From contig CBDAQZ010000004.1 of assembly GCA_965199335.1 (NCBI GenBank), forward strand, positions 128,666 to 192,665: a stretch of DNA of 64,000 bases, read 5' to 3'. This document shows, piece by piece, positions 40,283-55,771 of this stretch; within the stretch, counting starts at the first letter, position 1; each line of letters starts with the position of its first letter. This DNA comes from Alphaproteobacteria bacterium (GTDB lineage: Bacteria > Pseudomonadota > Alphaproteobacteria > CALMVH01). The translations under genes and the position numbers were made by a program. The notes beneath the pieces are model-generated. The model did not search any database and was not told the origin of the DNA. It saw only the letters and a list, made by a program, of their open reading frames with translations.

Positions 40283-40304
40283 GGGATTATCCTTCTAACA
40301 AACG

Positions 40305-40655
40305 GTCATCCCCGGCTTGACCCGGGATCTGTTTACGGCACAAACGAACTCATGTTCGTCTACATTATGGGCACCAAGCGGCGCGGCGTTCTTTACACCG
40401 GCGTGACGTCCGATATCATCAAGCGCGTCTATGAGCACAAGACCAAAATCATCGGCGGTTTTACCGCGCGGTACGGTTTGGACAGGCCGATCTATTTCGA
40501 GGAAATCGACGACCCCCTGACTGCGATCGCACGGAAGTTCGAATTGATCGAGGGACTTAATCCTGAGTGGGCCGATCTTTATCCGTCGCTGCTTGGATAA
40601 TTTTTGAAAGCTGTCAAAAGATCCCGGGTCTCCGCTGCGCTTTGCCCGGGATGAC
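40305..40655. mobile_element. Candidate miniature element: GIY-YIG nuclease gene bracketed by imperfect terminal inverted repeats (GTCATCCCCGGCTTGACCCGGGATC ... GATCCCGGGTCTCCGCTGCGCTTTGCCCGGGATGAC)
   Basis: Inverted repeats read directly on either side of the 40352..40600 ORF; inserted in the intergenic spacer of the beta-oxidation operon. Confidence 0.4.
40352..40600 (+). CDS. GIY-YIG nuclease family protein (YhbQ/UPF0213-like, 82 aa)
   Basis: MFVYIMGTKRRGVLYTGVTSDIIKRVYEHK matches the GIY-(x10)-YIG...R..EH core of small stand-alone GIY-YIG proteins. Confidence 0.75.
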   Translation: MFVYIMGTKRRGVLYTGVTSDIIKRVYEHKTKIIGGFTARYGLDRPIYFEEIDDPLTAIARKFELIEGLNPEWADLYPSLLG

Positions 40656-40680
40656 AATGGGAAAAATGAAATCTCCATCG

Positions 40681-43002
40681 TCAATTCCTCAACGGCTTGC
40701 CCGTATCCAGCATGTGCTCGATGCGGTTCAGCGTGCCGTCGTTCTTTACCAGCTTCAGGAACTCGCGGTGTTCCAGCGTCGTCAGATCGTCCTCGGTCAT
40801 CACCTTCGTGATGTCGGTGTCGCCGCCGCTCATCACGGTGGCGACGGCGTCCGCCACCACCACGTCGTAGGCGGTCGCGAGGCCCGATCCGCGGAAGCCC
40901 TGCACCGCCATGTCCAGTGCCAGCTTGGCCGTCGGTCCGGGAAGGCGGATTTCGGGGGGAACCGGTGGGTGATAGTCTTTCGCCAGTTCCAGCGCCTTCG
41001 CCTTCGCGTCTGCCAGCAGGCGGTCCTTGTTCATCGTGATCGCGTCGTTGTCGCGCAGGTATAGCAGCTCCTTCGCCTCGAACGCGGATTTCGACACCTT
41101 GGCGGTGCTGATCGTTTCGAACGCCGCCGCCAGGCCGGGCATCGGGCCGCCGGGGCGTTTCTTGTTCGCGGTGTGGCGCACGACCATTTCCTTGGTGCCG
41201 CCCCAGCCGGGCAGCAGGCCGACGCCGACCTCCACCAGCCCCATGTACAGCTCGGCATGCGCCTGGACATGGGCCGAGTGCAGCAGTATCTCGCAGCCGC
41301 CGCCCAGCGCCATGCCGGTCGGCGCGGACACCACCGGGAATGGCGCATATTTCAGCGCCTTGTAGGTCGCCTGCCCGCCACTCACCATTTCGTCGATCGC
41401 GGGGTAGAGACCGACATTGAGCGCGAACAGCGCCAAGCCCAGATTGGCACCGACGGAGAAATTCTCGCCCTCGTTATGCACCACGATCGCCTTCCAGGGT
41501 CCCTTGCCATCCCCGACGAGTTTCAGAGCGCCCTGCAGCATCTCCATGATCTGCGGGTCCATCGAATTCATCTTCGACGTGAACTCGACGCACACCACGC
41601 CGTCGCCGATATCCCACAGCGATGCCGACGCGTTCCTGGCCAGCGGCTTGGACGCGCGCTTGATGTCGGACAGAAGCAGCACGCCCGGCGCGCGTTTCAG
41701 GTCGCGGTATTCGCCGTCGATGCCAAGGTACTGCAGCCTGCCGTTTTCGGTGCGATAGAAAGGACGGCCCGCCGCCGTCTGCAACAAGGCCGGCACCGGA
41801 AGACCCTCGGCCTGCAGCTTCTGCGCGAACGCGGCGGAGCCCAGCTGGTCGATCAGTTCGAACGGGCCGTATTTCCAATTGTAGCCAAGGCGCATCGCCT
41901 CGTCGATTTCGGGTACGCTGTCCGCGATTTCGGGCACCAGGCCGGCGGCATAGCTCAGCGTGTCGCGCAGCACGGCCCAGGCGTATTTGTTGCCCGCGCC
42001 CGTACCGCCGACCAGCGCGGGCAGCTTGCCGCGATAGGCGTCCTTGTCCGGCTTGCGCTCGGCGCGGTATTCGCCGGTTTTCAGGTCGATGGTTTCCTTG
42101 CGCTTGTCCGCGCCATCGCGCACCAGGCGGTAGAAACCGCCCTTGCCCTTGCGCCCGGTCAGCCCTTCGGAAATCATGTTTCCGATCAGCGGAATGTCGC
42201 GGTAGACACTGCGATAGGCGTCCTTTTCCGGCAGCGTCATCAACAGGCTCTTGGCCAAATGCGGCATCAGGTCGATGCCGACCAGGTCGACCAGGCCGAA
42301 GATGCCGCTCTTGGGAATGCCCATCGGCTTGGACGCGATGGCGTCCGCTTCCTCGACATCCAGGCCGAGGTCGATGGCGTGGTTGATGCCCGCCTGAATC
42401 CACAGCGTGCCGATGCGGTTGGCGATAAAGCCCGGCGTGTCCTTGGCGCGCACCACGCCCTTGCCCAGCCGTATGTCGGCGAAGGCGGAAATCTCGTCGA
42501 CCGCCTCGCTTCGGGTGTCAACGCCCTTCACCACTTCCAGCAGCCGCATGTAGCGCGGCGGGTTGAAGAAGTGGGTGATCAGGAAATCCTTCCTGAACGC
42601 ATCGGACTGCCCCTGCACCAGGTACTGCAACGGGATGGTGGATGTGTTCGACGACACGAACGATCCCGGCTTGCGCACCGCGTCCAGCTTGGCGTACAGC
42701 GCCGACTTGATCTTGGGGTTCTCGATCACCGCCTCGATGATCCAGTCGACATCGCCCAGCTTGTCGAGATCGTCTTCCAGGTTGCCCGGGGTCACCAGCT
42801 TGGCCGCGCGCTTGTGCATGAACGGCGCGGGCTCGGTCTTCAGCAGCTTCTCGATCGCGCCCTTGGCGATGCGGCTGCGGTCGCCTTCCCCTTCCGGCAC
42901 GATGTCCAGCAGCAGGACGGGCACGCCGGCATTGGCGATATGGGCGGCGATCGCCGCGCCCATTACGCCGGCGCCGAGGACGGCGACTTTCTCGATGGCC
43001 AT
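40681..43002 (-). CDS. Fatty-acid oxidation multifunctional protein: N-terminal 3-hydroxyacyl-CoA dehydrogenase, C-terminal enoyl-CoA hydratase/isomerase
   Basis: ORF 40681..43050; likely start MAIEKVAVLGAGVMGAAIAAH (NAD Rossmann); crotonase-fold motifs in the C-terminal third (FSVGANLGLALF, EILLHS). Confidence 0.9.
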   Translation of the reverse strand: MAIEKVAVLGAGVMGAAIAAHIANAGVPVLLLDIVPEGEGDRSRIAKGAIEKLLKTEPAPFMHKRAAKLVTPGNLEDDLDKLGDVDWIIEAVIENPKIKSALYAKLDAVRKPGSFVSSNTSTIPLQYLVQGQSDAFRKDFLITHFFNPPRYMRLLEVVKGVDTRSEAVDEISAFADIRLGKGVVRAKDTPGFIANRIGTLWIQAGINHAIDLGLDVEEADAIASKPMGIPKSGIFGLVDLVGIDLMPHLAKSLLMTLPEKDAYRSVYRDIPLIGNMISEGLTGRKGKGGFYRLVRDGADKRKETIDLKTGEYRAERKPDKDAYRGKLPALVGGTGAGNKYAWAVLRDTLSYAAGLVPEIADSVPEIDEAMRLGYNWKYGPFELIDQLGSAAFAQKLQAEGLPVPALLQTAAGRPFYRTENGRLQYLGIDGEYRDLKRAPGVLLLSDIKRASKPLARNASASLWDIGDGVVCVEFTSKMNSMDPQIMEMLQGALKLVGDGKGPWKAIVVHNEGENFSVGANLGLALFALNVGLYPAIDEMVSGGQATYKALKYAPFPVVSAPTGMALGGGCEILLHSAHVQAHAELYMGLVEVGVGLLPGWGGTKEMVVRHTANKKRPGGPMPGLAAAFETISTAKVSKSAFEAKELLYLRDNDAITMNKDRLLADAKAKALELAKDYHPPVPPEIRLPGPTAKLALDMAVQGFRGSGLATAYDVVVADAVATVMSGGDTDITKVMTEDDLTTLEHREFLKLVKNDGTLNRIEHMLDTGKPLRN

Positions 43003-44141
43003 TATACCGCCTCCAGGATGGTGGAGATACCCATGCCGCCGCCGATACACATTGTCGCCAGCGCCAGATTCTTCTTTTCGCGCTGCAGGATGGCCGCGGC
43101 GTGGCCGACGACACGCGCGCCGCTGGCGCCCAGCGGGTGGCCCAGCGCGATGGCCCCGCCGTCGAGGTTCAGCTTCTCAGGCGGAATGTTCAAATCGCGC
43201 ACCACCGACAGCGACTGTGCGGCGAAGGCCTCGTTCAGCTCGACGATGTCGATGTCGTTCATCGTGACGCCGGCGCGCTTCATCGCCTTCTGCGTCGCCG
43301 GCACCGGGCCGATGCCCATGATGTCGGGCGCGCAGCCCGCGACCGCGATCGACTTGATCCGCGCCATGATGGTCAGGCCGTGGCTTCTGGCATACTCCTC
43401 CGACACGATCAGCGTCGCCGAGGCGCCATCGGTCAGCGGCGAGGAATTGCCCGCCGTCACCGTGCCGCCGTCCTGCTGGAAGGCCAGCTTCAATTCGCCC
43501 AGCTTCTCGATCGTGCTTTCGGGACGAATACAGCCGTCCTTGTCCACCACCCCGTCCGGCGTCGCGATCGGCACGATCTCGGCCGTGTAATGCCCGGCCA
43601 TCCACGCCCTGGCCGCCTTCTGGTGCGAGGCCAGCGCGAATTCGTCCTGCTCGCGCCGCCCGATCTGGTATTTCTTCGCCAGGTTCTCGGCGGTGTCGCC
43701 CATCGAGATGAAGGCCTGGATCGCCGGGTCCATCAGCTTGGGGTTCGGCATCGGGTTGAAGCCCCCCATCGGCACGCGCGTCATCGATTCGACACCCGCC
43801 GCGATGAAGGCATCGCCCGCGCCTGCCGCGATCGCGCCCACCGCCATGTGCACCGCCTGCATCGACGAGCCGCAGAAGCGGTTGACCGTCGTGCCCGCCA
43901 CGCCCAGCGGCAATTTCGCCAGCAGGCCGATCAGGCGGCCGACGTTGAAGCCCTGCTCGCCCTCGGGAAAGGCGCAGCCGACGATCAGGTCTTCAAGCGC
44001 CTGCGTGTCGACTTTGGTTTCATCGACCAGCGCGCGCACGACGGTCGCCGCCAGGTCGTCGGGCCTGACCCTGACCAGCGCGCCCTTGTTCGCGAAATGA
44101 AACGGCGAGCGCTTATAACCCGCGATGACAACGTTGCTCAT
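43002..44141 (-). CDS. fadA: Acetyl-CoA C-acyltransferase (3-ketoacyl-CoA thiolase)
   Basis: 379 aa; thiolase active-site regions (NRFCGSSMQAV, NEAFAAQ, GHPLGASGAR, CIGGGMG). Confidence 0.9.
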   Translation of the reverse strand: MSNVVIAGYKRSPFHFANKGALVRVRPDDLAATVVRALVDETKVDTQALEDLIVGCAFPEGEQGFNVGRLIGLLAKLPLGVAGTTVNRFCGSSMQAVHMAVGAIAAGAGDAFIAAGVESMTRVPMGGFNPMPNPKLMDPAIQAFISMGDTAENLAKKYQIGRREQDEFALASHQKAARAWMAGHYTAEIVPIATPDGVVDKDGCIRPESTIEKLGELKLAFQQDGGTVTAGNSSPLTDGASATLIVSEEYARSHGLTIMARIKSIAVAGCAPDIMGIGPVPATQKAMKRAGVTMNDIDIVELNEAFAAQSLSVVRDLNIPPEKLNLDGGAIALGHPLGASGARVVGHAAAILQREKKNLALATMCIGGGMGISTILEAV

Positions 44142-44557
44142 GGCTTTTCCTTCTGGTGCGATAGATGGGCGATAATCTCGCCTTCGATGGTTTGCAACTC
44201 GGCGATCGTCTGCTTGACGTCTTCCAGCTGCGTCTTCAATGCCGCGATGCGGCCGCGCGCATGGTCCAGCAGATAGCGCATCTGCTCGTGCTGGCCGGCA
44301 TCGACGTCGTAAAGGTTGAGGAATTCCTTGATCTCGGCGACGGAGAAACCCAGCCGCTTGCCGCGGCAGATCAGTTTCAGCCGGGCACGGTCCTGTTTCG
44401 TGAACAGCCGGTTCTGCCCGTCCCGGGAGGGGGCCAACAGGCCCTCGGCCTCGTAGAAGCGAATGGAACGCAGGGTCAGACCGAACTCCTCCGCCAACTC
44501 GCCGATGGTGAAGGTCCTGTCGTCCGCCGAAGCCGTATTGTCCGTAAGAGCCGACAT
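44138..44557 (-). CDS. MerR-family transcriptional regulator (likely regulator of the beta-oxidation operon)
   Basis: ORF 44138..44608; HTH FTIGELAEEFGLTLRSIRFYE; start M18 (or M1 at 44608) is uncertain; 4-nt overlap with the thiolase start. Confidence 0.8.
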   Translation of the reverse strand: MSALTDNTASADDRTFTIGELAEEFGLTLRSIRFYEAEGLLAPSRDGQNRLFTKQDRARLKLICRGKRLGFSVAEIKEFLNLYDVDAGQHEQMRYLLDHARGRIAALKTQLEDVKQTIAELQTIEGEIIAHLSHQKEKP

Positions 44558-45023
44558 GACTGTCTGCCTTCGTTTGACCTTACGTAAAGGTAAGCCTGTT
44601 TGAGACAAATGGCAAGGGTTGTTTGCAGGCTGCTGTATTGGACAAACACCGGCTTCGGGAATTCGGTTGAAAGAATCCCGGATAAGTTCTACAGTTCAGT
44701 ATTGGGATAAACGGAAGGCCTATCAATGAACCACGAACAAACGCCGGCAGCCCATTTCTGCCCCAACACCCCAGGCGTTATCGCCGCGCACGATCCCAGC
44801 GCTTACAGGCTGGTCGGCAGCACTCATGTAAAAGTCGAGGGTGCAACGGAAGCGCCAAAAGCGACGGCGCCCTATGTTGCCGTGGATTATGCGCCCATGG
44901 CATCCGTACCGGCTGGTGATCAAACAGCATGCACAAATCATCATCTCACGTAGATAACGCTATGGCTTTTTGCCATCTGTAACTCATCGGTTTCCGGGCT
45001 GAGCACATCTAAAAGCAGGGTCT

Positions 45024-46280
45024 TTATGGCTGTAGTTCTTGAATCACCGTATTCACGTGATCACAAGCAGATCTCATTCCACCATACCAAATTGCCAGCT
45101 TCCGATTAGGGTCCTTGGATTTCTCAAACTCGTTTTCTTGCTTGAGTTTCCCAACGGCATAAGGGATCGACTCTCCAAAAGCCGTCATGCTCGAAGGATT
45201 CGGACCAAACATATTTGTTATTCTTATTGCTGATGGTGACGACTCCAAAGGGTCACCGCTACCTACGGTAAGCTTGTTGTTGCACGCAAAGTCGATGCTG
45301 ACTACGGGGCGAGGACGATTCTGCTGGAATCGAGTGAATGCACTTCGTACATGCGTATCTACGAAGCTGAAACCAAGAACCAGTAAGGCATCAGCTTTTT
45401 CGACGAGATAATCCAGTCTTGAGTAGTAAGTTCGGAAGGGAACTTGTTGAAGGGCATATGGTTTGCCATACCCAGCAATGATTGTGGAATTAGGGAAAAT
45501 ATATCCTTCTGGTGTTTGAAAACTCATTCGCCCGATAGATTTGGGCGGCGTCCGTTCTAGAGAAGGGTTCCATGAAATAGTTCGTGGAAAATCTAAGTCA
45601 AAATAAACAGACCCATGTAAGTGTAGAAAGCTACTGAACTCCGTGTCTAATAAGAGCCGGCGGGGTACGAACTCGCCAGCCTCATTAAAGCCGGTTTCCA
45701 TATCAGAACACAAGTCGAAGAGGACATTATCGTAATTCGTCGTTATAACCGACACATCGAATTGCAATCTCACCTCTTCAATGAATTTTTTGAGCGCGGT
45801 TACATCACGGTCTAGCTTGCATTCTTGAAAAAATCGCCGAACCAGAAAATCAATTATCCAATCGGAAATAAGTATAAGTTTATTCCTATCTGGCTTACGT
45901 GAACCGTCTTTGATTTTCATTTCCGGTAATTCGGAGAGTGTAACCAAACTGCCCAAGCCATTGGTGAATATTCCGGCCGGAAACATACCGATAAGCTGAT
46001 ATAGCGTGCCTAATACATTCTCGAAATTGATGCCATCAAATGGCCTTGGATGATATGCTTCTATGTGCTTCGAAATACGATCACGCATCCAGTCATATAA
46101 ATTTCCATTTTCATGCGCGAATGGAAAAGCTTCTTTGGAATAGTCTGAAATCCAATTACCAACTGTCGTTGTTGACGGCATACCGAACGGTACCGTTGCA
46201 CCAGCTCCAGCTATTATAAGAAGCTTTTTTCTATCCATACTATGCTCAAACATCGAGGCGATCACCAGAGTGCCACGCAA
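45024..46280 (-). CDS. SIR2-family (SIR2_2-type) protein, candidate defence NADase
   Basis: 418 aa (404 if started at MDRKKLLII); LLIIAGAGATVPFGMPS, ITTNYDNVLFD, HLHGS and LLVLGFSFVDTHV match the defence-associated SIR2 domain; low-GC gene (about 40-45%) in a 62% GC genome. Confidence 0.65.
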   Translation of the reverse strand: MRGTLVIASMFEHSMDRKKLLIIAGAGATVPFGMPSTTTVGNWISDYSKEAFPFAHENGNLYDWMRDRISKHIEAYHPRPFDGINFENVLGTLYQLIGMFPAGIFTNGLGSLVTLSELPEMKIKDGSRKPDRNKLILISDWIIDFLVRRFFQECKLDRDVTALKKFIEEVRLQFDVSVITTNYDNVLFDLCSDMETGFNEAGEFVPRRLLLDTEFSSFLHLHGSVYFDLDFPRTISWNPSLERTPPKSIGRMSFQTPEGYIFPNSTIIAGYGKPYALQQVPFRTYYSRLDYLVEKADALLVLGFSFVDTHVRSAFTRFQQNRPRPVVSIDFACNNKLTVGSGDPLESSPSAIRITNMFGPNPSSMTAFGESIPYAVGKLKQENEFEKSKDPNRKLAIWYGGMRSACDHVNTVIQELQP

Positions 46281-46353
46281 TCAGCCGATGTTAAATAGAC
46301 TTTGCGCTAAGTCTCAATCTACAAGACGTGATTAGTGCATACTTATAATGACT

Positions 46354-46776
46354 CTATTCGGACCCGAAAGCGAACCCTGCGTTCTGCAGCTGCCTGATGC
46401 TGTTGCCGACGACCGCGCGCTGCAACTCATTCAACTGTGATTTGCCAGGATCATAAGCCACTTCAAGGGCTTGTTCCGTCTGCTTCCAGGTTGGTCCATC
46501 GACATATTGTGGACCCATGATACTCAACTGGGTCGCATCGTTGGCTATCTGATCGACCAGGGTATCATTTGGATTCGAATAACTTGCAGGATCAGGATTC
46601 TGGATGGCGGCAACAGTCTCTTGAATTTGAACCGCATCGCGTTTTGAGTCTGCGGCCAAGGTTTTCTTTGCGTTCTTCTGACCTGCCGATTCCCATGGTG
46701 CGGCTTCATATAGGGAAGCTGCACTAATAGCTAGAATTGTGGTCAGCAATATCTGTGAACTACGTGATTTGAACAT
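46354..46776 (-). CDS. Hypothetical secreted protein (140 aa), co-oriented immediately upstream of the SIR2-like gene
   Basis: N-terminal signal peptide (LLTTILAISAASLYEAAP); low GC; no family recognised. Confidence 0.5.
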   Translation of the reverse strand: MFKSRSSQILLTTILAISAASLYEAAPWESAGQKNAKKTLAADSKRDAVQIQETVAAIQNPDPASYSNPNDTLVDQIANDATQLSIMGPQYVDGPTWKQTEQALEVAYDPGKSQLNELQRAVVGNSIRQLQNAGFAFGSE

Positions 46777-46865
46777 GATTTTCCTCCCAAATTGGTTGAA
46801 AATATCACATCTTATTCTGCAATCAAATAAAAAGTTTTATAAAATGTTAATATTAAACATTTCCA

Positions 46866-48722
46866 TTACCCCACCAGCCCTTTCACCGCCAGGTCGCTGA
46901 GCCGCCGCGCAAAGGCCGGCGCGTCCAGAACCGCCTCGCCCTCGGCGATGCGGGCCTGGTCCAATAGCAGCCAGGCGAGGTCCTTGACCTCGTCCGGCGA
47001 GGCGGTAACCTTGCCTGCCAGCGCCGCGATCAGGCGGTGTTTCGGGTTGATCTCAAGCACGCGCTTCACCAACTGGTCGAACTGCTTGTGCGCCTTCAGC
47101 AGGCGTTCCAGGTGCATGTCGACATCGCCCTCGTTCGCGACCAGGCAGACCGCGCTGTCGGTCAGGCGGGTGGAGGCGCGCACGTCCTTGACCTCCGACG
47201 CCAGTGTTTCCTTCATCAGCGCGATCAGCGCCTCGACCGCCTCGGATGGCTTGGTCTCCGGCTCGGCGACATCGTCTGCAGCCTTGATCTTGTCAAGATC
47301 GTCGCCGCCGCGCGTGACCGACTTGAATTCCTTGTCCTTGAACGTGCCGACCGTGGCGGGCCAGAATTCGTCCACCGGATCGGTCAGCAGCAATACCTCG
47401 ACGCCGCGGGCGCGGAAGCCCTCCAGCTGCGGGCTCTGCAACAGCTTCTCCGGATTGTCGCCGGCGATGGTATAGATCGCATCCTGGCCTTCCTTCATGC
47501 GCGACACGTAGGAGTCGAGGCTGGTATAGCCCTCAACCGCCGTCGAGCGGAAACGCACCAGCTTCAGCAGGTCGTCGCGGAACTCGACATCCTCGTACAG
47601 GCCTTCCTTCAGCACGGCGCCGAAGTTTTCCCAGAACTTGGCGTAGTCCGCCTCGTCCTTGGCGCGCTTGGCCAGTTCCGACAGCACGCGCTTGGTCACG
47701 CCCTGGCGGATCTTGGCGATCACCGGGCTGACCTGCAGCATCTCGCGGCTGAGGTTGAGCGGCAAATCCTCGCTGTCAACGACGCCGCGGGTGAAGCGCA
47801 GCCAGGGCGGTATCAGCCCCTGCGCCGCCTCGGAGATGAAGACGCGGCGGACATACAGCTTGACCTCGTGCGCGCGCTGCGGGTCGAACAGGTTGAACGG
47901 CTTGCTGTCGGGTATGAACAGCAGCGCGGAGTAATCGATCACGCCCTCCGCCCGCCAGTGCATCGTCGCCCACGGCGCGTCGAACGCCTTGGAGGTGTGG
48001 TGATAGAATTCCTTGTACTGCTCCTCGGTGATCTCCGACTTGGCGCGCATCCACAGCGCCGACGCCGCGTTCAGCTTGTCGGGGTCGCCGGCCAGCTCGA
48101 TCGGGATCGCGACGTGGTCGGAGTATTTGCGCACGATCTGCTTCAGGCGCGGGGTTTCCAGGTACTCGTCCTCCCCCTCGCGCAAATGCAGGATGATCTC
48201 GACGCCGCGGCTTTCCTTTTCGGCCGGGCTGACAGTGAATTCGCCTCGCCCGTCCGACTCCCAGCGCCAGGCCTCGGCCTCGCCTGCCTTGCGGCTGAGC
48301 ACCGTGACCTTGTCGGCCACCATGTAGGCGGAATAGAAGCCGACGCCGAACTGGCCGATCAGCGCGCTATCCTTCTTGTCCTGCAACGCCTGGCTGAACG
48401 CCGCGGTGCCGGAACGCGCGATTGTGCCCAGGTTCTCGATCAGCTCGGCGCGGTCCATGCCGACGCCGTTGTCGCTGATGGTCAGCGTGCGCGCGTCCTT
48501 GTCGGCCGTGATGACGATCTTGAAATCCGTGCCGCCGGCATCGGCCAGTTCCGGCTTGGTCAGCGACAGGTAGCGCAGCTTGTCGCAGGCGTCGGAGGCG
48601 TTGGAAATCAACTCGCGCAGGAAGATTTCCTTCTCGCTGTACAGCGAATGCGCGACGATATCGAGCAGCCGGCTGACTTCGGCCTGGAAGGAAAGCTTTT
48701 CTGTCGTTGCCGTTTCGGTCAT
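46866..48722 (-). CDS. htpG: Molecular chaperone HtpG (Hsp90)
   Basis: ORF 46866..49664; true start MTETATTEKLSFQAEVSRLLDIVAHSLYSEKEIFLRELISNASDA (GHKL ATPase N-box) at M315. Confidence 0.95.
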   Translation of the reverse strand: MTETATTEKLSFQAEVSRLLDIVAHSLYSEKEIFLRELISNASDACDKLRYLSLTKPELADAGGTDFKIVITADKDARTLTISDNGVGMDRAELIENLGTIARSGTAAFSQALQDKKDSALIGQFGVGFYSAYMVADKVTVLSRKAGEAEAWRWESDGRGEFTVSPAEKESRGVEIILHLREGEDEYLETPRLKQIVRKYSDHVAIPIELAGDPDKLNAASALWMRAKSEITEEQYKEFYHHTSKAFDAPWATMHWRAEGVIDYSALLFIPDSKPFNLFDPQRAHEVKLYVRRVFISEAAQGLIPPWLRFTRGVVDSEDLPLNLSREMLQVSPVIAKIRQGVTKRVLSELAKRAKDEADYAKFWENFGAVLKEGLYEDVEFRDDLLKLVRFRSTAVEGYTSLDSYVSRMKEGQDAIYTIAGDNPEKLLQSPQLEGFRARGVEVLLLTDPVDEFWPATVGTFKDKEFKSVTRGGDDLDKIKAADDVAEPETKPSEAVEALIALMKETLASEVKDVRASTRLTDSAVCLVANEGDVDMHLERLLKAHKQFDQLVKRVLEINPKHRLIAALAGKVTASPDEVKDLAWLLLDQARIAEGEAVLDAPAFARRLSDLAVKGLVG

Positions 48723-50685: not shown

Positions 50686-53109
50686 ATGCACACCCCTCCC
50701 CGCATCACCGCCGTCCTCGGGCCGACCAATACCGGCAAGACGCATTTCGCCATCGAGCGCATGCTGGGGCATCATTCGGGCATGATCGGGCTGCCGCTGC
50801 GCCTGCTGGCGCGCGAGGTCTACGACCGGGTGGTGGCGCAGAAGGGGGCGAAGATCGTCGCGCTGATCACGGGCGAGGAAAAGATCGTGCCCGCGCACGC
50901 GCGCTATTTCATCTGCACCGTCGAGGCGATGCCGCTCGAGCGGCCGGTGGACTGCCTGGTGATCGACGAGATCCAGCTGGCCAGCCATCCCGAGCGCGGC
51001 CATGTCTTCACCGACCGGCTGCTGCATGCGCGCGGCCTGGCGGAAACGATCTTCCTGGGCGCGGAAACGATGAAGCCGGTCATCGCGGCGCTGGTGCCGG
51101 GGGTGGAGATCGTCACCCGCCCGCGCCTGTCGAGCCTGACCTATAGCGGCTACAAGAAGCCGGCACGCCTGCCCGCCCGCTCAGCCATCGTCGCCTTCTC
51201 CGCCGCCGAGGTCTACCGCATCGCCGAATTCATCCGCCAGCATCGCGGCGGCACCGCCGTGGTGCTGGGCGCGCTGAGCCCGCGCACGCGCAACGCGCAG
51301 GTGGATTTGTTCGAGCGCGGCGAGGTCGACTACCTGGTCGCCACCGACGCCATCGGCATGGGCCTGAACCTGGACATCGCGCATGTCGCCTTCGCCCGCG
51401 ATTCCAAGTTCGACGGGCGCAACGGCAGGCGGCTATGGCCGGAGGAAGTCGCCCAGATCGCGGGCCGCGCCGGGCGGCACATGCGCGACGGCACGTTCGG
51501 CACCACCTTCGAATTGAAAGGCTTCACGCCGGAGCTGGTCGAGGCGATCGAGGAACACCGCTTCGACCCGGTGACGAAGCTGTACTGGCGCAACAGCAGC
51601 CTGGACTTCTCCAATCCGCGCATGCTGCTGGCCAGCCTGGAACGGCGGCCCGACCAGCGCGTGTTCGCGCAGATGCACGACGCCGACGACCACCGCGCGC
51701 TGAAGGCGCTGACCCAGCGGCTGGAGGCGGAAAGGAAAACACCGGGCCGGTCGCGCACCGCCCTGCTGTGGGAGGTCTGCCAGATCCCCGATTTCCGCAA
51801 GATCATGTCGGACGATCACATCACCCTGCTGGCCGGCCTCTTCGACCATCTTTCCGCGCGGCCCGGCATCGTGCCCGCCGAGTGGGTCGGGCGGGAGATC
51901 GCGCGGCTGGACAGCGGCCAGGGCACGATCGAGATGCTGACCACCGGCCTCGCCGCGATCCGCACCTGGACCTATGTCACCGCCAAGACCGGCTGGGTCG
52001 AGCATGGGGAGGAGTTGCACGCCAAGGCGCGCGCCACCGAAAACCGCATCTCCGACGCGCTGCATGCCGCGCTCAGCGAGCGCTTTGTCGACAAGCGCAG
52101 CGCCAGCCTGGCGCGCGCCACCTCGGCGAAACAGGACCTGCTGGCCGGCGTGCGCGGCAATGGCGAGGTTGTGGTTGAGGGCCATGTCATGGGCGCGCTG
52201 AAGGGCTTCCGCTTCGTCGTCGACGAAAGCGTAGCGCTGGGCGACCGCGAACTGGTGCTGAAGACCGCCAACCGCGCGCTGGCGCAGGAGATGCGGACGC
52301 GCATCGGCAGCCTGTCGGAGGTACCCGATACCGCCTTCGCGCTTGAACTGGACGGGTCGATCCTGTGGGACAACCAGCCCGTCGCGCGGCTGGCCCCGTC
52401 GGCGAAGCTGCTGGAACCCGCCATCCAGGTGCTGAAGACCGACCTGCTGGACCCGGCGCAGGAAACGCTGGTGGCCCAGCGCGTAGGGCTGTGGCTGCGC
52501 GCCGAAATCCGCCGCCGGTTGCAGACGCTGCTGGGGCTGATGAAGACACGCGACGATGCCGCCCTGGACCCGGAGCTGCGCGGCATCGCCTTCACCCTGC
52601 TGGAGAATTTCGGCGTCGTTCCCAGGGACCATGGCGACTATACCGCCGCCCAGTTGCAATGGCTGCAGAGCCGCGGCGTCACCCTGGGTACGCGCTACCT
52701 GTACATGAAGGGCTTGCTGAAGCCGGACGTGACCGGGTTCATGGCGTTGCTATGGAATGTGCAGCACGGCACCAAGCTGGCGCCCCCGAAACCGAACCGG
52801 GTGTCGGTGCCTGTTGCCAGCGAAGACCAAAACGATTTCCATGCCGCGCTTGGCTACCCGGTCCTAGCCGCCCGCGCGATCCGCATCGACCGGCTGGACG
52901 CCATGGCGGCGGAACTTGCCGAAGGCCGGGAGATCAAGGTCAAGCTGCTGGCGAAGCTGCTGACATGCACGCCGAGGCAGGCGGAGGATGTGATCGCGGC
53001 GTTATGCCGCAAACCGGTAAGGAAGACTCACGGCCATGGGTTCCATCACTCGCCGTTCGCCGGCTTGCGGGAAACCCACGGCTCTACCGGGGATGCAACC
53101 AGGGCTTAA
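50686..53109 (+). CDS. Superfamily-2 helicase, SUV3-like (mitochondrial Suv3-type ATP-dependent RNA helicase homolog common in alphaproteobacteria)
   Basis: 807 aa; Walker A AVLGPTNTGKTHFA, DEIQ (DExH) box, SAT-like and motif VI (QIAGRAGRHMRDG) regions; long C-terminal extension. Confidence 0.75.
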   Translation: MHTPPRITAVLGPTNTGKTHFAIERMLGHHSGMIGLPLRLLAREVYDRVVAQKGAKIVALITGEEKIVPAHARYFICTVEAMPLERPVDCLVIDEIQLASHPERGHVFTDRLLHARGLAETIFLGAETMKPVIAALVPGVEIVTRPRLSSLTYSGYKKPARLPARSAIVAFSAAEVYRIAEFIRQHRGGTAVVLGALSPRTRNAQVDLFERGEVDYLVATDAIGMGLNLDIAHVAFARDSKFDGRNGRRLWPEEVAQIAGRAGRHMRDGTFGTTFELKGFTPELVEAIEEHRFDPVTKLYWRNSSLDFSNPRMLLASLERRPDQRVFAQMHDADDHRALKALTQRLEAERKTPGRSRTALLWEVCQIPDFRKIMSDDHITLLAGLFDHLSARPGIVPAEWVGREIARLDSGQGTIEMLTTGLAAIRTWTYVTAKTGWVEHGEELHAKARATENRISDALHAALSERFVDKRSASLARATSAKQDLLAGVRGNGEVVVEGHVMGALKGFRFVVDESVALGDRELVLKTANRALAQEMRTRIGSLSEVPDTAFALELDGSILWDNQPVARLAPSAKLLEPAIQVLKTDLLDPAQETLVAQRVGLWLRAEIRRRLQTLLGLMKTRDDAALDPELRGIAFTLLENFGVVPRDHGDYTAAQLQWLQSRGVTLGTRYLYMKGLLKPDVTGFMALLWNVQHGTKLAPPKPNRVSVPVASEDQNDFHAALGYPVLAARAIRIDRLDAMAAELAEGREIKVKLLAKLLTCTPRQAEDVIAALCRKPVRKTHGHGFHHSPFAGLRETHGSTGDATRA

Positions 53110-53546
53110 AGGTAAACGCTGGCGTCTTTCATCGGGAAGCCGGCTATCAGCGGCGTGGCGCGTTGATTTTCAGTAACAATCCGTGCTGCTGGTCCAGGCG
53201 CCGGCTTAGATGGCGAATTCGGCACTGTCGCTAATGGAGCGACAGAAACTTGATAAGCTTCGCGCAAGTCGCTGACGATCTGAGCGTTATCACCCTTCTC
53301 GCCGTAATAGATGGCGATTGCAAGAATGCCAGGCGATTCCGTTGCCGGCATTTCAGGATGCTGAACGGCTTTCAAAATCAATTTTCCTGCCGCTTCCATA
53401 TACTGGCCGCGAACCGGATTTTCACAATCATCGTTGGCGCCGTGCATGAAGTCGATAAGGTGATAAGCGGCCACCAGCGGGTTTTTTTCGATCTTTGGAA
53501 GCGTTTCTGAAACCAATATCTTTATTGCCGTAGTATCATCGATCAT
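53106..53546 (-). CDS. Hypothetical protein (146 aa), lower GC
   Basis: ORF only; 4-nt overlap with the helicase stop. Confidence 0.4.
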   Translation of the reverse strand: MIDDTTAIKILVSETLPKIEKNPLVAAYHLIDFMHGANDDCENPVRGQYMEAAGKLILKAVQHPEMPATESPGILAIAIYYGEKGDNAQIVSDLREAYQVSVAPLATVPNSPSKPAPGPAARIVTENQRATPLIAGFPMKDASVYL

Positions 53547-53713
53547 AAATCTTCCTCTTAAAAAGATGCGGCACCCTATAGGGCAACTCTTTTTGCGTCA
53601 ATCGATTTTTACTGTTTCTTAGTCATTTGGCCAATTCGCCCGTTAACCGAACAACTTGCAAACTGGCGTGTTAGAGTCAGTTGGTTCCAACTTCATTATA
53701 CAAGGAGGTTTGC

Positions 53714-53920
53714 ATGGCGTTCGCCGAAAGACTTGAGTCGATGGGGCGTAAAAAGCATGATCTGGAACTGGCAATACACGAGCTGGAAAAACAGCCCCAA
53801 CCGGATGAACTGGCCATCAGACGAATGAAGCGGGAAAAACTGGCGCTGAAGGATCAGATCGCAGCCTTGCTCGATGAGCATGCGCATGTCGAGGAAGCAG
53901 CATTACAGGCAGCGGAATAG
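53714..53920 (+). CDS. DUF465 (YdcH-like) small coiled-coil protein
   Basis: ORF 53681..53920 with likely start MAFAERLESM; HELEKQPQPDELAIRRMKREKLALKDQIAAL fits the DUF465 pattern. Confidence 0.6.
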   Translation: MAFAERLESMGRKKHDLELAIHELEKQPQPDELAIRRMKREKLALKDQIAALLDEHAHVEEAALQAAE

Positions 53921-53928
53921 TTTAAACT

Positions 53929-53978
53929 GTCATTCCGAGCGCAGCGAAAACTTTCGATCGAGATATTTCGCTGCGCTC
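53929..53978 (+). terminator. Hairpin after the DUF465 gene (GTCATTCC-GAGCGCAGCGAAA ... TTTCGCTGCGCTC)
   Basis: 13-bp stem read directly; no clean T-run, so it may be a REP-like element rather than an intrinsic terminator. Confidence 0.4.
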
Positions 53979-54029
53979 AACATGATAATCCTTATCTTTT
54001 CTTGCTTCTGGCAAGACAGAAGAGATCTC

Positions 54030-55010
54030 TCAAGCTCCAACACGAACCACTTGGCTGGTCTTGGGAGCTGCTTGTTGAGCTATGAAAGGTTCAGCGGGCT
54101 GATTGCCAGTAACTTGCACGTTATCAAGAAAAAGAACACCCTCTCTGGTCACCCACGAGGTTCCTTTGTAACGATTTGCAGGATCCGTTTTTTGAACATC
54201 GGTGTGGAGTTTTTCGTAACAATGAAAAACACATTCGACGCCGAGCGTTTTTACTTCCGCAACGGCACTACGAAAATCATAGTCGTTTGTATATTCTGGA
54301 TCGAAGACAACAGATTTTTTACCGTCCATATCTGTCTGGGCAATGCCCGGAGCCATAAAATGGACCTTATGGGTTTCGGGCGTAACATGCTCTTTCAGCA
54401 TCTGCCGAACATTATGAGTTTCCGAAGGTCGGTAGTGCGAAAATGTAATTGTAGCAGGGTTATCGATAAAGGTGCCAAGGCAGCTGCGCAAAGTATCGGT
54501 TGCGACGCTCCTGCCTTTTTCGAGGGTTACCTGCTCGCCCATTTCTACAACGGCGTCAAAACGTTCAGCCAGTTCCTTCGTTATCGATGGTTTAGGCCTT
54601 GCGGCAATTGCCTCGCTAACGGTACTTTCAGACATAACGAAGCCGCCAGCTTGTAATATCTCCTTCAAATCCTGGACGAGTTTTATCACATCGGCGTCTT
54701 TAAAATCTTGTCTATAGGGATTGCTTGCACCATTAAACACAGGAAAAATATTCCCATTGGGAATTTCTTCCAGAAAGCCAGCAATATTTTGGCTGGATTG
54801 CCGGGAAACGAGCATCGTAACGTCGTTTTCGGTTTTGCCCTGAGAGGCAACCATCAGATAGACGGGATTTCCCAGAACTGTGTTTACTCGGCTTGACTCC
54901 GTGGGCTGTATTTCGAGAGTCCTGAATAGCTGGGCGTAGTAATCATGAATGCCGGGGCCGACCAACGGCTCGGTCGAATCCTTAAACGGACCCATGATCG
55001 TATCGGGCAA
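54030..55010 (-). CDS. Hypothetical protein (326 aa) in an AT-rich (about 45% GC) patch
   Basis: Long ORF with atypical composition; no family recognised. Confidence 0.45.
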   Translation of the reverse strand: MPDTIMGPFKDSTEPLVGPGIHDYYAQLFRTLEIQPTESSRVNTVLGNPVYLMVASQGKTENDVTMLVSRQSSQNIAGFLEEIPNGNIFPVFNGASNPYRQDFKDADVIKLVQDLKEILQAGGFVMSESTVSEAIAARPKPSITKELAERFDAVVEMGEQVTLEKGRSVATDTLRSCLGTFIDNPATITFSHYRPSETHNVRQMLKEHVTPETHKVHFMAPGIAQTDMDGKKSVVFDPEYTNDYDFRSAVAEVKTLGVECVFHCYEKLHTDVQKTDPANRYKGTSWVTREGVLFLDNVQVTGNQPAEPFIAQQAAPKTSQVVRVGA

Positions 55011-55183
55011 GTTACTGAAGTAATCAGGCTTTCTGTTACCTGAATCGACGGCTGTTGTGGCATGTTATTCCATTAAAAGATGCTGTAAAATAAGGCATCT
55101 TCCAATAAATTTCAACCATGAAGTGAAAACGCCCGGTACCTTCGGCAAATATTCGGGATATGCCGTACCGGGCGAAACGACGG

Positions 55184-55771
55184 TTACAGATTATACTCGT
55201 TTTCGTGTTCGGTCGGCTGATCGACATACTGGCTGTGATGCAGCCCCTCGGTCGAGATATTCAGCTTGGTCAGTAGCGTGTCCAATTCCGACTGGGTGCA
55301 GAAACCCAGCGCCACCGGGCTGCGCGGCTTGATGTTGGCCGCATTCTCGTGCGTGCGGGTGCGAACGGCGTTGATCGTCGGCTTGGTGGTGCCGATCAGC
55401 TTGCCGATCTGCACGTCGCTGAGATCCGGCACGTTCTTGAGCAGCCACGCGATCGCGTCGGGCTTGTCGCCGCGCTTGTTCACCGGGGTGTAGCGCGGTC
55501 CCTTGGTCCGGCGCGCCGGTTCCGGCAGGCTGCTTTCCAGTGCCACCAGATGCGCCGCCCCGTCCCCCTCGCAACGCGCGATCTCGGTGCGGGTCAGCAA
55601 TCCGGCCAGTACCGGGTCGGTGCCGACCATGCCGATCGCAACCTCGCCATCGGCGATCGCCTGGACTTCCAGCTCGTGCAGGCTGCAGAACTTCGCGATC
55701 TGCACAAAGGTCAGGGTCGTGTTTTCAAGCAGCCACACGGCCGTAGCCTTGGGCATGAGGGGTTGAGCCAT
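55184..55771 (-). CDS. DUF1013-family protein (conserved alphaproteobacterial protein)
   Basis: 195 aa; N-terminus MAQPLMPKATAVWLLENTTLTFVQIAKFCSLHELEVQAIADGEV matches my recollection of DUF1013. Confidence 0.6.
   Translation of the reverse strand: MAQPLMPKATAVWLLENTTLTFVQIAKFCSLHELEVQAIADGEVAIGMVGTDPVLAGLLTRTEIARCEGDGAAHLVALESSLPEPARRTKGPRYTPVNKRGDKPDAIAWLLKNVPDLSDVQIGKLIGTTKPTINAVRTRTHENAANIKPRSPVALGFCTQSELDTLLTKLNISTEGLHHSQYVDQPTEHENEYNL

Follow-up and report, generated by a model that had tools for sequence, protein, structure and literature searches.

A stand-alone SIR2_2 gene in a horizontally acquired insert beside htpG of an alphaproteobacterium, a candidate partner-less NADase of anti-phage defence

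The SIR2 NAD+ glycohydrolases (NADases) belong to the most widespread effectors of anti-phage defence. To our knowledge, all well-understood SIR2 NADases leave the decision to fire to a separate sensor, which is a partner protein or else a large domain fused to the enzyme. Here, a SIR2 gene is described that lies on the minus strand (45024-46238) of a 64,000-nucleotide stretch of an alphaproteobacterial genome, called the window below, within an AT-rich insert between htpG and merR, the regulator gene of a beta-oxidation operon. It encodes a stand-alone SIR2_2 (SIRim-type) protein of 404 amino acids (aa) from an ATG start, and its family, which is related to the SIR2-HerA NADase but has a single domain and no HerA, forms a rare and so far uncharacterised branch of a well-known defence superfamily. 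With somewhat more confidence than doubt, the insert is read as delivering a self-contained, horizontally mobile SIR2 NAD+ glycohydrolase which serves abortive-infection defence without a partner gene. A partner-less SIR2 of 400 aa raises the question of how such a minimal protein senses infection yet spares its host, and the family is a tractable one for it, being compact, confidently modelled and closest to a structurally solved, autoinhibited enzyme. The finding is plausible, and it is no surprise, as SIR2 defence is known to be broad and sole-Sir2, described next, provides a precedent.

Two described systems are the closest. In SIR2-HerA, the SIR2 subunit of Paenibacillus sp. 453MF (8w9l) is a bilobed protein of 381 aa. 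Its large domain is of Rossmann type and its small domain covers residues 53-130; N163, D165 and H212 are catalytic, and the C-terminal helix folds back against the large domain (PMC11472057). The small domain blocks the NAD+ pocket, and deletion of this autoinhibitory part activates the NADase (PMC11472057). Sole-Sir2 consists of one Sir2 protein (~440 aa), which turns NAD+ into ADP-ribose, and a homologue protects Escherichia coli from T2 and T4; an N-terminal non-Sir2 part is followed by a C-terminal Sir2 domain resembling that of DSR2 (bioRxiv 10.1101/2024.12.27.630466). In a phylogeny of SIR2 proteins, sirtuins are separated from an immunity-linked SIRim clade. Every bacterial antiphage SIR2 protein that DefenseFinder detects falls in this clade, and defence systems show a 12-fold enrichment in the neighbourhoods of its members (bioRxiv 10.1101/2024.09.18.613514).

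Compared with these, the window SIR2 is most like the SIR2 subunit of SIR2-HerA (Nezha; 8W9L/8WLD, E. coli 8SUB/8J4U), which gave both the best profile match and the best fold match. Length is similar, the layout is collinear (Rossmann large domain, helical small domain, C-terminal helices) and the catalytic residues are numbered alike, N168/D170/H208 in the window protein and N163/D165/H212 in the Paenibacillus one. In contrast to that system, in which HerA activates a dodecameric or tetradecameric ring of SIR2 subunits, no HerA gene is present in the window or adjoins any homologue, and the PADLOC SIR2 models are matched by the family only weakly and partially. Sole-Sir2 is the closest functional precedent, as it is also a partner-less single gene of ~400-440 aa with a Sir2 domain. 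Compared by description only, it differs in that the NAD-binding loop of the window protein starts as early as residue 10 and the DSR2 match is marginal (E=0.008); in addition, no CRISPR association was seen for the window family. From the published description, membership in the sole-Sir2 subfamily is perhaps unlikely.

Other SIR2 systems are more distant. DSR1 and DSR2 also represent single-gene SIR2 NADase defence, with abortive infection through NAD+ depletion, but they have ~1000 aa with a large C-terminal sensor, whereas the window SIR2 has 404 aa and no extra domain. A DSR assignment was rejected because the protein forms one compact unit and the DSR2 profile matched over 35 residues only, at the E value given above. 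Thoeris ThsA and the SIR2-APAZ protein of SPARSA share the PF13289-type SIR2 catalytic domain, and weak matches to the PADLOC Aga_SIR2 model and to the ThsA fold were obtained. Thoeris was rejected since neither a SLOG/Macro domain (the cpYpsA match is noise, E=0.25, below the cut-off) nor a ThsB/TIR gene was found in the window, and SPARSA since the protein has no APAZ domain and no Argonaute lies in the window or recurs beside the homologues. The human proteins FAM118A and FAM118B are likewise short, single-domain, partner-less non-canonical sirtuins of SIR2_2 type, kin to bacterial anti-phage sirtuins; unlike the window protein they are vertebrate, and they are absent from its top 50 PDB fold matches.

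The SIR2 protein and its family

Pfam SIR2_2 (PF13289), the domain of known antiphage SIR2 proteins, matched residues 177-324 with 31.7 bits against a gathering cut-off of 24.5. With PF02146, the model of canonical sirtuins, no match was obtained even at E<=1. Since the protein contains no CxxC pair and only four scattered cysteines (140, 177, 319 and 392), it has no zinc ribbon, and a CobB-like canonical sirtuin deacylase was rejected on the absence of both the PF02146 match and CxxC. An original prediction, made from the DNA alone, had called the gene SIR2_2-type and not a CobB-like deacetylase, which these results bear out. It had also described a protein of 418 aa with four hallmark motifs. 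All four are present (IAGAGATVPFGMPS, TTNYDN, HLHGS and LVLGFSFVD), but the length holds only for an alternative TTG start at 46280 (open reading frame, ORF, 45024-46280). Translation more likely starts at the ATG at 46238, since the database copy (P0001) is 404 aa long and the corresponding M-x-KKKLL opens the family alignment.

Four motifs mark the putative active site and its surroundings, all read on the minus strand. The glycine-rich loop AGAGA (residues 10-14, 46197-46211) would bind NAD on the first Rossmann strand, as read from the sequence; G11 and G13 are conserved in at least 90% of the family alignment. TTNYDN (residues 166-171, 45726-45743) aligns with TTNYD of 8w9l and holds the putative catalytic Asn168 and Asp170, while HLHGS (residues 206-210, 45609-45623) aligns with its LHGS and holds the putative catalytic His208. 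GFSFVDTH (residues 289-296, 45351-45374) has G289, D294 and H296 invariant, and its region is where the PADLOC SIR2 models and Pfam SIR2_2 match best. Over an alignment of 47 sequences, the full set of invariant residues is E73, N168, Y169, D170, G183, F184, F190, H208, G209, S210, W223, G256, P267, G289, D294, H296 and G387.

The family is small. A search of 5.8 billion proteins returned 81 homologues, the nearest just 40% identical, and 78 of the 81 carry a precomputed PF13289 match. Nearly all are 400-430 aa long, and their alignments cover 94-97% of the query, indicating a full-length family and not a domain match. The named matches and genome loci come from Alpha-, Beta-, Gamma- and Deltaproteobacteria, Bacteroidota, Acidobacteriota, Verrucomicrobiota and Nitrospirae. 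NCBIfam and PHROGs gave no match for the SIR2 protein. The PADLOC SIR2 and Aga_SIR2 models were matched weakly by all 47 aligned members (best E=2.5e-19 and 3.5e-22), and the matches of the window protein were partial, confined to the GFSFVD region or to residues 149-317; for Aga_SIR2 they reached E=3e-7. Since the matches are partial and weak, no PADLOC v2 model covers the family at full length, and PADLOC v2.0 would therefore not report such loci as a defence system. In seven loci (L044, L050, L053, L068, L079, L080 and L081) the family copy looks truncated, frame-shifted or split into partial ORFs, which suggests that the gene decays often.

An AlphaFold2 model built from the family alignment was confident throughout, with a predicted local distance difference test (pLDDT) of 92.7, a predicted template modelling score (pTM) of 0.92 and no low-confidence segment. 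Foldseek placed SIR2 subunits of SIR2-HerA in the top 20 positions against the PDB. The best match was 8wld_J (E=8e-13, template modelling (TM) score 0.57 by query and 0.67 by target), followed by 8sub, 8uae, 8j4u and 8sxx, and the alignments exceed 420 columns in length; further down the list came canonical sirtuins and ThsA (E ~1e-6 to 1e-5). The family profile against PDB sequences gave 8w9l at E=8e-14, with E. coli Nezha SIR2, DSR2 and KomC marginal. According to the model, the protein is one compact bilobed unit. The C-terminal region, for which an unknown fold had been proposed, shares this fold, and a separate C-terminal domain was rejected since the compact model aligns along its full length with the 340-400-aa SIR2 subunit of SIR2-HerA. 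Column entropy is 1.1-1.5 bits in the core (residues 1-22, 160-215 and 253-315) and 2.5-2.6 bits in the small domain (23-159) and the C-terminal insert (316-378), which are the most variable parts of the family.

Horizontal acquisition and stand-alone status

The gene lies in the most AT-rich stretch of the window. In 300-bp windows, GC content is 0.40-0.49 across ~44800-46900 and 0.63-0.69 in the flanks; in 500-bp windows, the minimum of the 64 kb (0.408) falls inside the insert, against a mean of 0.618 (standard deviation 0.056). DNA homology by blastn to two uncultured relatives (L082 and L083) stops at 46876 and picks up again at 44617, which delimits a foreign segment of 2258 bp (44618-46875) with a GC content of 0.456 versus 0.618 for the window. 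An AT-rich island between merR and htpG had thus been rightly predicted, although its proposed extent (44950-46860) was slightly too small. Third-position GC content (GC3) is 0.41 in the SIR2 coding sequence, against 0.81 in merR and 0.89 in htpG. Overall GC content is 0.435 for SIR2 and 0.50 for a 140-aa ORF upstream of it.

At the same junction neither relative has a SIR2 gene; other cargo is found there, so that the island is not core DNA shared by relatives, again as predicted. With its deviant composition and its absence from close relatives at a conserved junction, the insert was acquired horizontally. The GC3 of the SIR2 gene has not yet drifted toward that of its neighbours, and judging by this composition the insertion looks recent.

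Homologue loci were collected from two sources, 11 for seven homologues by exact protein look-up and 70 by a genome scan with the pattern HGSVH[FH], giving ~73 non-redundant loci; the window protein carries HGSVYF and is hence outside the scan. Flanking ORFs were clustered down to 60 aa, and spacing was assessed on ORFs of at least 100 aa. Across the ~73 loci, clustering gave no shared partner family beyond the synteny of close relatives and generic ABC ATPases, and no conserved small partner at 60 aa. A same-strand gene lies within 60 bp upstream in 12 of 68 loci and downstream in 7 of 69, and none of these closely spaced neighbours are homologous outside close relatives. PADLOC on the 55 ORFs of the window found no HerA, TIR or Argonaute, just housekeeping look-alikes (MzaA, a DnaG-like model and ZorB). 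As had been predicted, a HerA, TIR, Argonaute or SLOG partner was found neither in the window by PADLOC and Pfam nor among the ~73 homologue loci. The SIR2 gene is a stand-alone unit, and of the two possibilities first raised, a minimal single-gene SIR2 module or a secreted neighbour as the sensor, the former fits a stand-alone family of 400-430 aa with no conserved partner.

When the two closest genes to either side were compared, a single family, a restriction helicase-nuclease, was shared by more than three loci; it occurred in 7. It is represented by a type I R subunit in L006 (precomputed Pfam), in L031, L054 and L074 (direct Pfam scan) and in L034 (by homology to L031). In L073 the direct scan identified it as a type ISP enzyme, and in L046 as an Mrr-helicase. 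In L006, L031, L034 and L073, the SIR2 gene is downstream of the restriction gene on the same strand, and the two may be co-transcribed in several unrelated genomes. These pairs extend over 4672-8221 in L006, 5984-11242 in L031, where the order is HsdR, YgjP-like peptidase and SIR2, and 3359-9726 in L073.

Further defence-type genes were found at single loci. A type I restriction-modification system and Zorya flank the homologue of L006, and the other neighbours include Mrr (L007), HigBA (L010), TacAT with DUF4145 (L003), a plasmid-like element with TrfA/H-NS (L001), ApeA (L017), a RES-domain protein (L014) and ImmA/IrrE (L013). A search of 148 flanking ORFs against PADLOC gave strong matches to GajA, mad3, mad5, AriA and the type I S-subunit, as family counts without assignment to loci, with redundant models taking up the output, and hence to be read qualitatively. 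Taken as a whole, Gabija, MADS, PARIS, Zorya, ApeA, RES and toxin-antitoxin genes are occasional neighbours. The median GC difference between the SIR2 family gene and its flanks is -0.04, and the difference is below -0.05 in 35 of 77 loci. AT-richness, disrupted copies and single-gene insertions fit a mobile, often lost defence gene.

In plasmids, only distant solo SIR2 proteins were matched (24-26% identity), and in BFVD only canonical viral sirtuins. A separate SIR2 group of ~310 residues, ~23% identical to the query, was observed on ~30 IMG/VR viral contigs of 30-59 kb (L093-L122), and may be a phage-encoded family distinct from that of the window.

Proposed function and alternatives

From the analogy with the SIR2-HerA enzyme, we infer NADase activity, autoinhibition, a phage trigger and an anti-phage outcome for the window SIR2. 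The Rossmann catalytic core lobe would carry Asn168, Asp170 and His208, and the second lobe would be the variable helical small domain (~23-159), joined by the variable C-terminal insert (~316-378). Since the small domain blocks the pocket in the Paenibacillus enzyme, the resting window enzyme is probably held inactive in the same way, with its small domain over the NAD+ pocket. A phage cue would then act on the variable regions directly or change the oligomeric state, relieving the block and opening the pocket, and the opened enzyme would hydrolyse cellular NAD+, so that infection is aborted.

Several observations weigh against this reading. The Paenibacillus SIR2 on its own is essentially inactive and needs HerA (PMC11472057); the closest solved relative being so dependent, a HerA-less enzyme must be activated by a route not yet seen. 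Identity to SIR2-HerA subunits is just 13-15%, with a TM score of ~0.57, which makes the transfer of mechanism a loose one, and the variability of the small domain may just mean weaker constraint. Counts of defence neighbours are raw, without a matched background control, and in many loci, including this window, L008, L012, L015, L018 and L019, the SIR2 gene lies amid housekeeping genes. Finally, no member of the family was found in 50,697 phage records, which leaves no phage-borne evidence either way, and its viral occurrence amounts to two cases on short viral contigs.

The housekeeping surroundings also favour a non-immune enzyme, which could be a deacylase that uses NAD+, an ADP-ribosyltransferase, or the product of a selfish or addiction gene that consumes NAD, in each case without a part in anti-phage defence. 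Protein deacylases share the SIR2 fold and appear lower in the Foldseek list, and no other defence gene adjoins the SIR2 gene in this window. However, the protein lacks both the PF02146 match and the zinc-binding cysteine motif, the distribution of the family is patchy, and the window gene is foreign in composition and missing from close relatives. Repeated adjacency to restriction, Zorya, ApeA, RES and toxin-antitoxin genes speaks against it as well, and so does the published phylogeny that ties the PF13289 (SIRim) branch to immunity (bioRxiv 10.1101/2024.09.18.613514). Such an enzyme is therefore considered unlikely.

Under a more specific form of the defence reading, the 400-aa SIR2 would be a complete sensor and effector, whose variable small domain and C-terminal insert bind a phage component and thereby free the NADase, and which backs up restriction in some hosts. 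Such a back-up is hinted at by restriction genes of type I, type ISP and Mrr that repeatedly, and in several phyla, directly precede the SIR2 gene; the SIR2 would fire once restriction is evaded or inhibited, like the PrrC anticodon nuclease. In this full form the proposal is quite unlikely.

An inert remnant, that is, the orphaned and functionless SIR2 subunit of a decayed SIR2-HerA or other multi-gene system, would agree with the closest solved relatives being SIR2-HerA subunits that are inactive without HerA, and with the seven copies noted above that look truncated or frame-shifted. Nevertheless, the window ORF is intact with every invariant residue present, and more than 80 full-length relatives in several phyla keep the 400-430-aa architecture without HerA nearby. 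The weak PADLOC SIR2 match (best E=2.5e-19) points to a separate lineage and not to recent SIR2-HerA debris, so that the chance of a remnant is small.

The remaining alternative concerns the 140-aa ORF (46354-46776, minus strand), which lies upstream of the SIR2 gene in the same orientation, as predicted. It is preceded by a GGGAGG ribosome-binding site, and its N-terminus, read by eye, is signal-peptide-like, with a basic n-region followed by ILLTTILAISAASL. Both a word-indexed search of the 5.8 billion proteins and a full HMMER search over 1.84 billion representatives returned just the ORF itself. Pfam, NCBIfam, PADLOC and PHROG gave no match above curated cut-offs; the sole Pfam match, to Neurokinin_B, amounts to noise (E=0.048, 14.1 bits versus a cut-off of 25.1). 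A single-sequence AlphaFold model was uninformative (pLDDT 41.8). In the 115-bp gap between this ORF and the SIR2 gene, 50 nt upstream of the SIR2 ATG, lies a promoter-like -35/-10 pair (TTGAGA, 18 nt, TAACAT; 46288-46317, minus strand), from a consensus scan that found 5 sites in the region against 3.6 expected from shuffles and thus counts as weak evidence.

A two-gene module, with the signal-peptide-like protein as sensor or antitoxin for a SIR2 effector or toxin, is very improbable: the two genes share the strand and the foreign segment and the ribosome-binding site is strong, but the ORF has no homologue in two exhaustive searches and no informative model, a related upstream gene occurs in 0 of 68 homologue loci, a small closely spaced one occurs in just 3 (one syntenic Methylobacterium group, with a CsoR-type repressor), the promoter-like site separates the two genes, their GC content differs (0.50 and 0.435), and an exported protein is unlikely as a cytoplasmic antitoxin or sensor. 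The secreted neighbour that had been put forward as a possible sensor thus has no related or consistently placed counterpart at homologue loci and, as far as the sequence searches indicate, is an unrelated orphan that forms part of the insert and not a conserved SIR2 partner.

The htpG-merR junction and other features of the window

The insert is bounded by core DNA on both sides. On the left, merR (44138-44557, minus strand) encodes a product 85% identical to MerR of L082, a homologue identified by its Pfam annotation. On the right, htpG (46866-48722, minus strand) encodes a protein of 618 aa with an HSP90 Pfam match, 89% identical to HtpG of L082, 87% to that of L083 and ~67% to that of Azospirillum, a similarity that puts the host among Rhodospirillales-like alphaproteobacteria. 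Both relatives keep the order dinB-htpG-[X]-merR-thiolase-hydroxyacyl-CoA dehydrogenase-acyl-CoA dehydrogenase, where X is a GFO_IDH_MocA oxidoreductase gene plus an AAA_33 kinase gene in L082 and the kinase gene alone in L083. The cargo of L082 is also AT-richer than its surroundings (0.496 versus 0.576). Since the cargo differs between relatives and is AT-rich in L082 too, the junction behaves as a small cargo-swapping hotspot with no visible mobility gene, and the locus shows how such an integration site beside htpG exchanges cargo between close relatives. The cargo lies at 4602-6267 in L082 and at 3755-4386 in L083.

No mobility signature was found in the insert, as judged by the absence of an integrase ORF and of an Rfam match at E<=1. 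The sole boundary repeat is an imperfect 18-nt direct repeat (14/18) at 44660-44677 (AATTCGGTTGAAAGAATC) and 46789-46806 (AAATTGGTTGAAAATATC). Its copies sit just inside each end of the insert, each upstream of a minus-strand start (merR and the 140-aa ORF), and could be a duplicated target, a promoter fragment or a chance occurrence.

Between merR and the SIR2 gene, the insert includes a spacer of 406 bp (44618-45023) with an intermediate GC content of 0.53. It showed no Rfam match and no similarity to any fetched locus, and no trace of the AAA_33 kinase of the relatives was detected in it by tblastn as a remnant. A 75-aa candidate ORF (44726-44953, plus strand) with a GGAAGG ribosome-binding site is convergent with the SIR2 gene, and the consensus scan placed a promoter-like site (44667-44695) upstream of it. 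This ORF had no family match in Pfam or PHROG, and the source database does not annotate it as a gene.

Elsewhere in the window, a second AT-rich island was observed at 53101-55300 (GC 0.48 versus 0.62), with ORFs at 53106-53546 (minus strand, 146 aa), 54030-55010 (minus strand, 326 aa) and 53681-53920 (plus strand, 79 aa); the 146-aa ORF and an overlapping plus-strand ORF of 260 aa had no Pfam or PADLOC match. In a patch of lower GC content at 61801-63000 (0.51), the minus-strand ORFs of 185 aa (61591-62148) and 196 aa (62173-62763) likewise had no Pfam or PADLOC match. Within the beta-oxidation operon, an ORF of 129 aa with a GC content of 0.52 (40295-40684) lies between the hydroxyacyl-CoA dehydrogenase and acyl-CoA dehydrogenase genes. 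The same slot holds a 141-aa gene in L082 (10212-10637) and a 71-aa gene plus a ParE toxin gene in L083 (8528-9060), and this gap is a second small variable slot.

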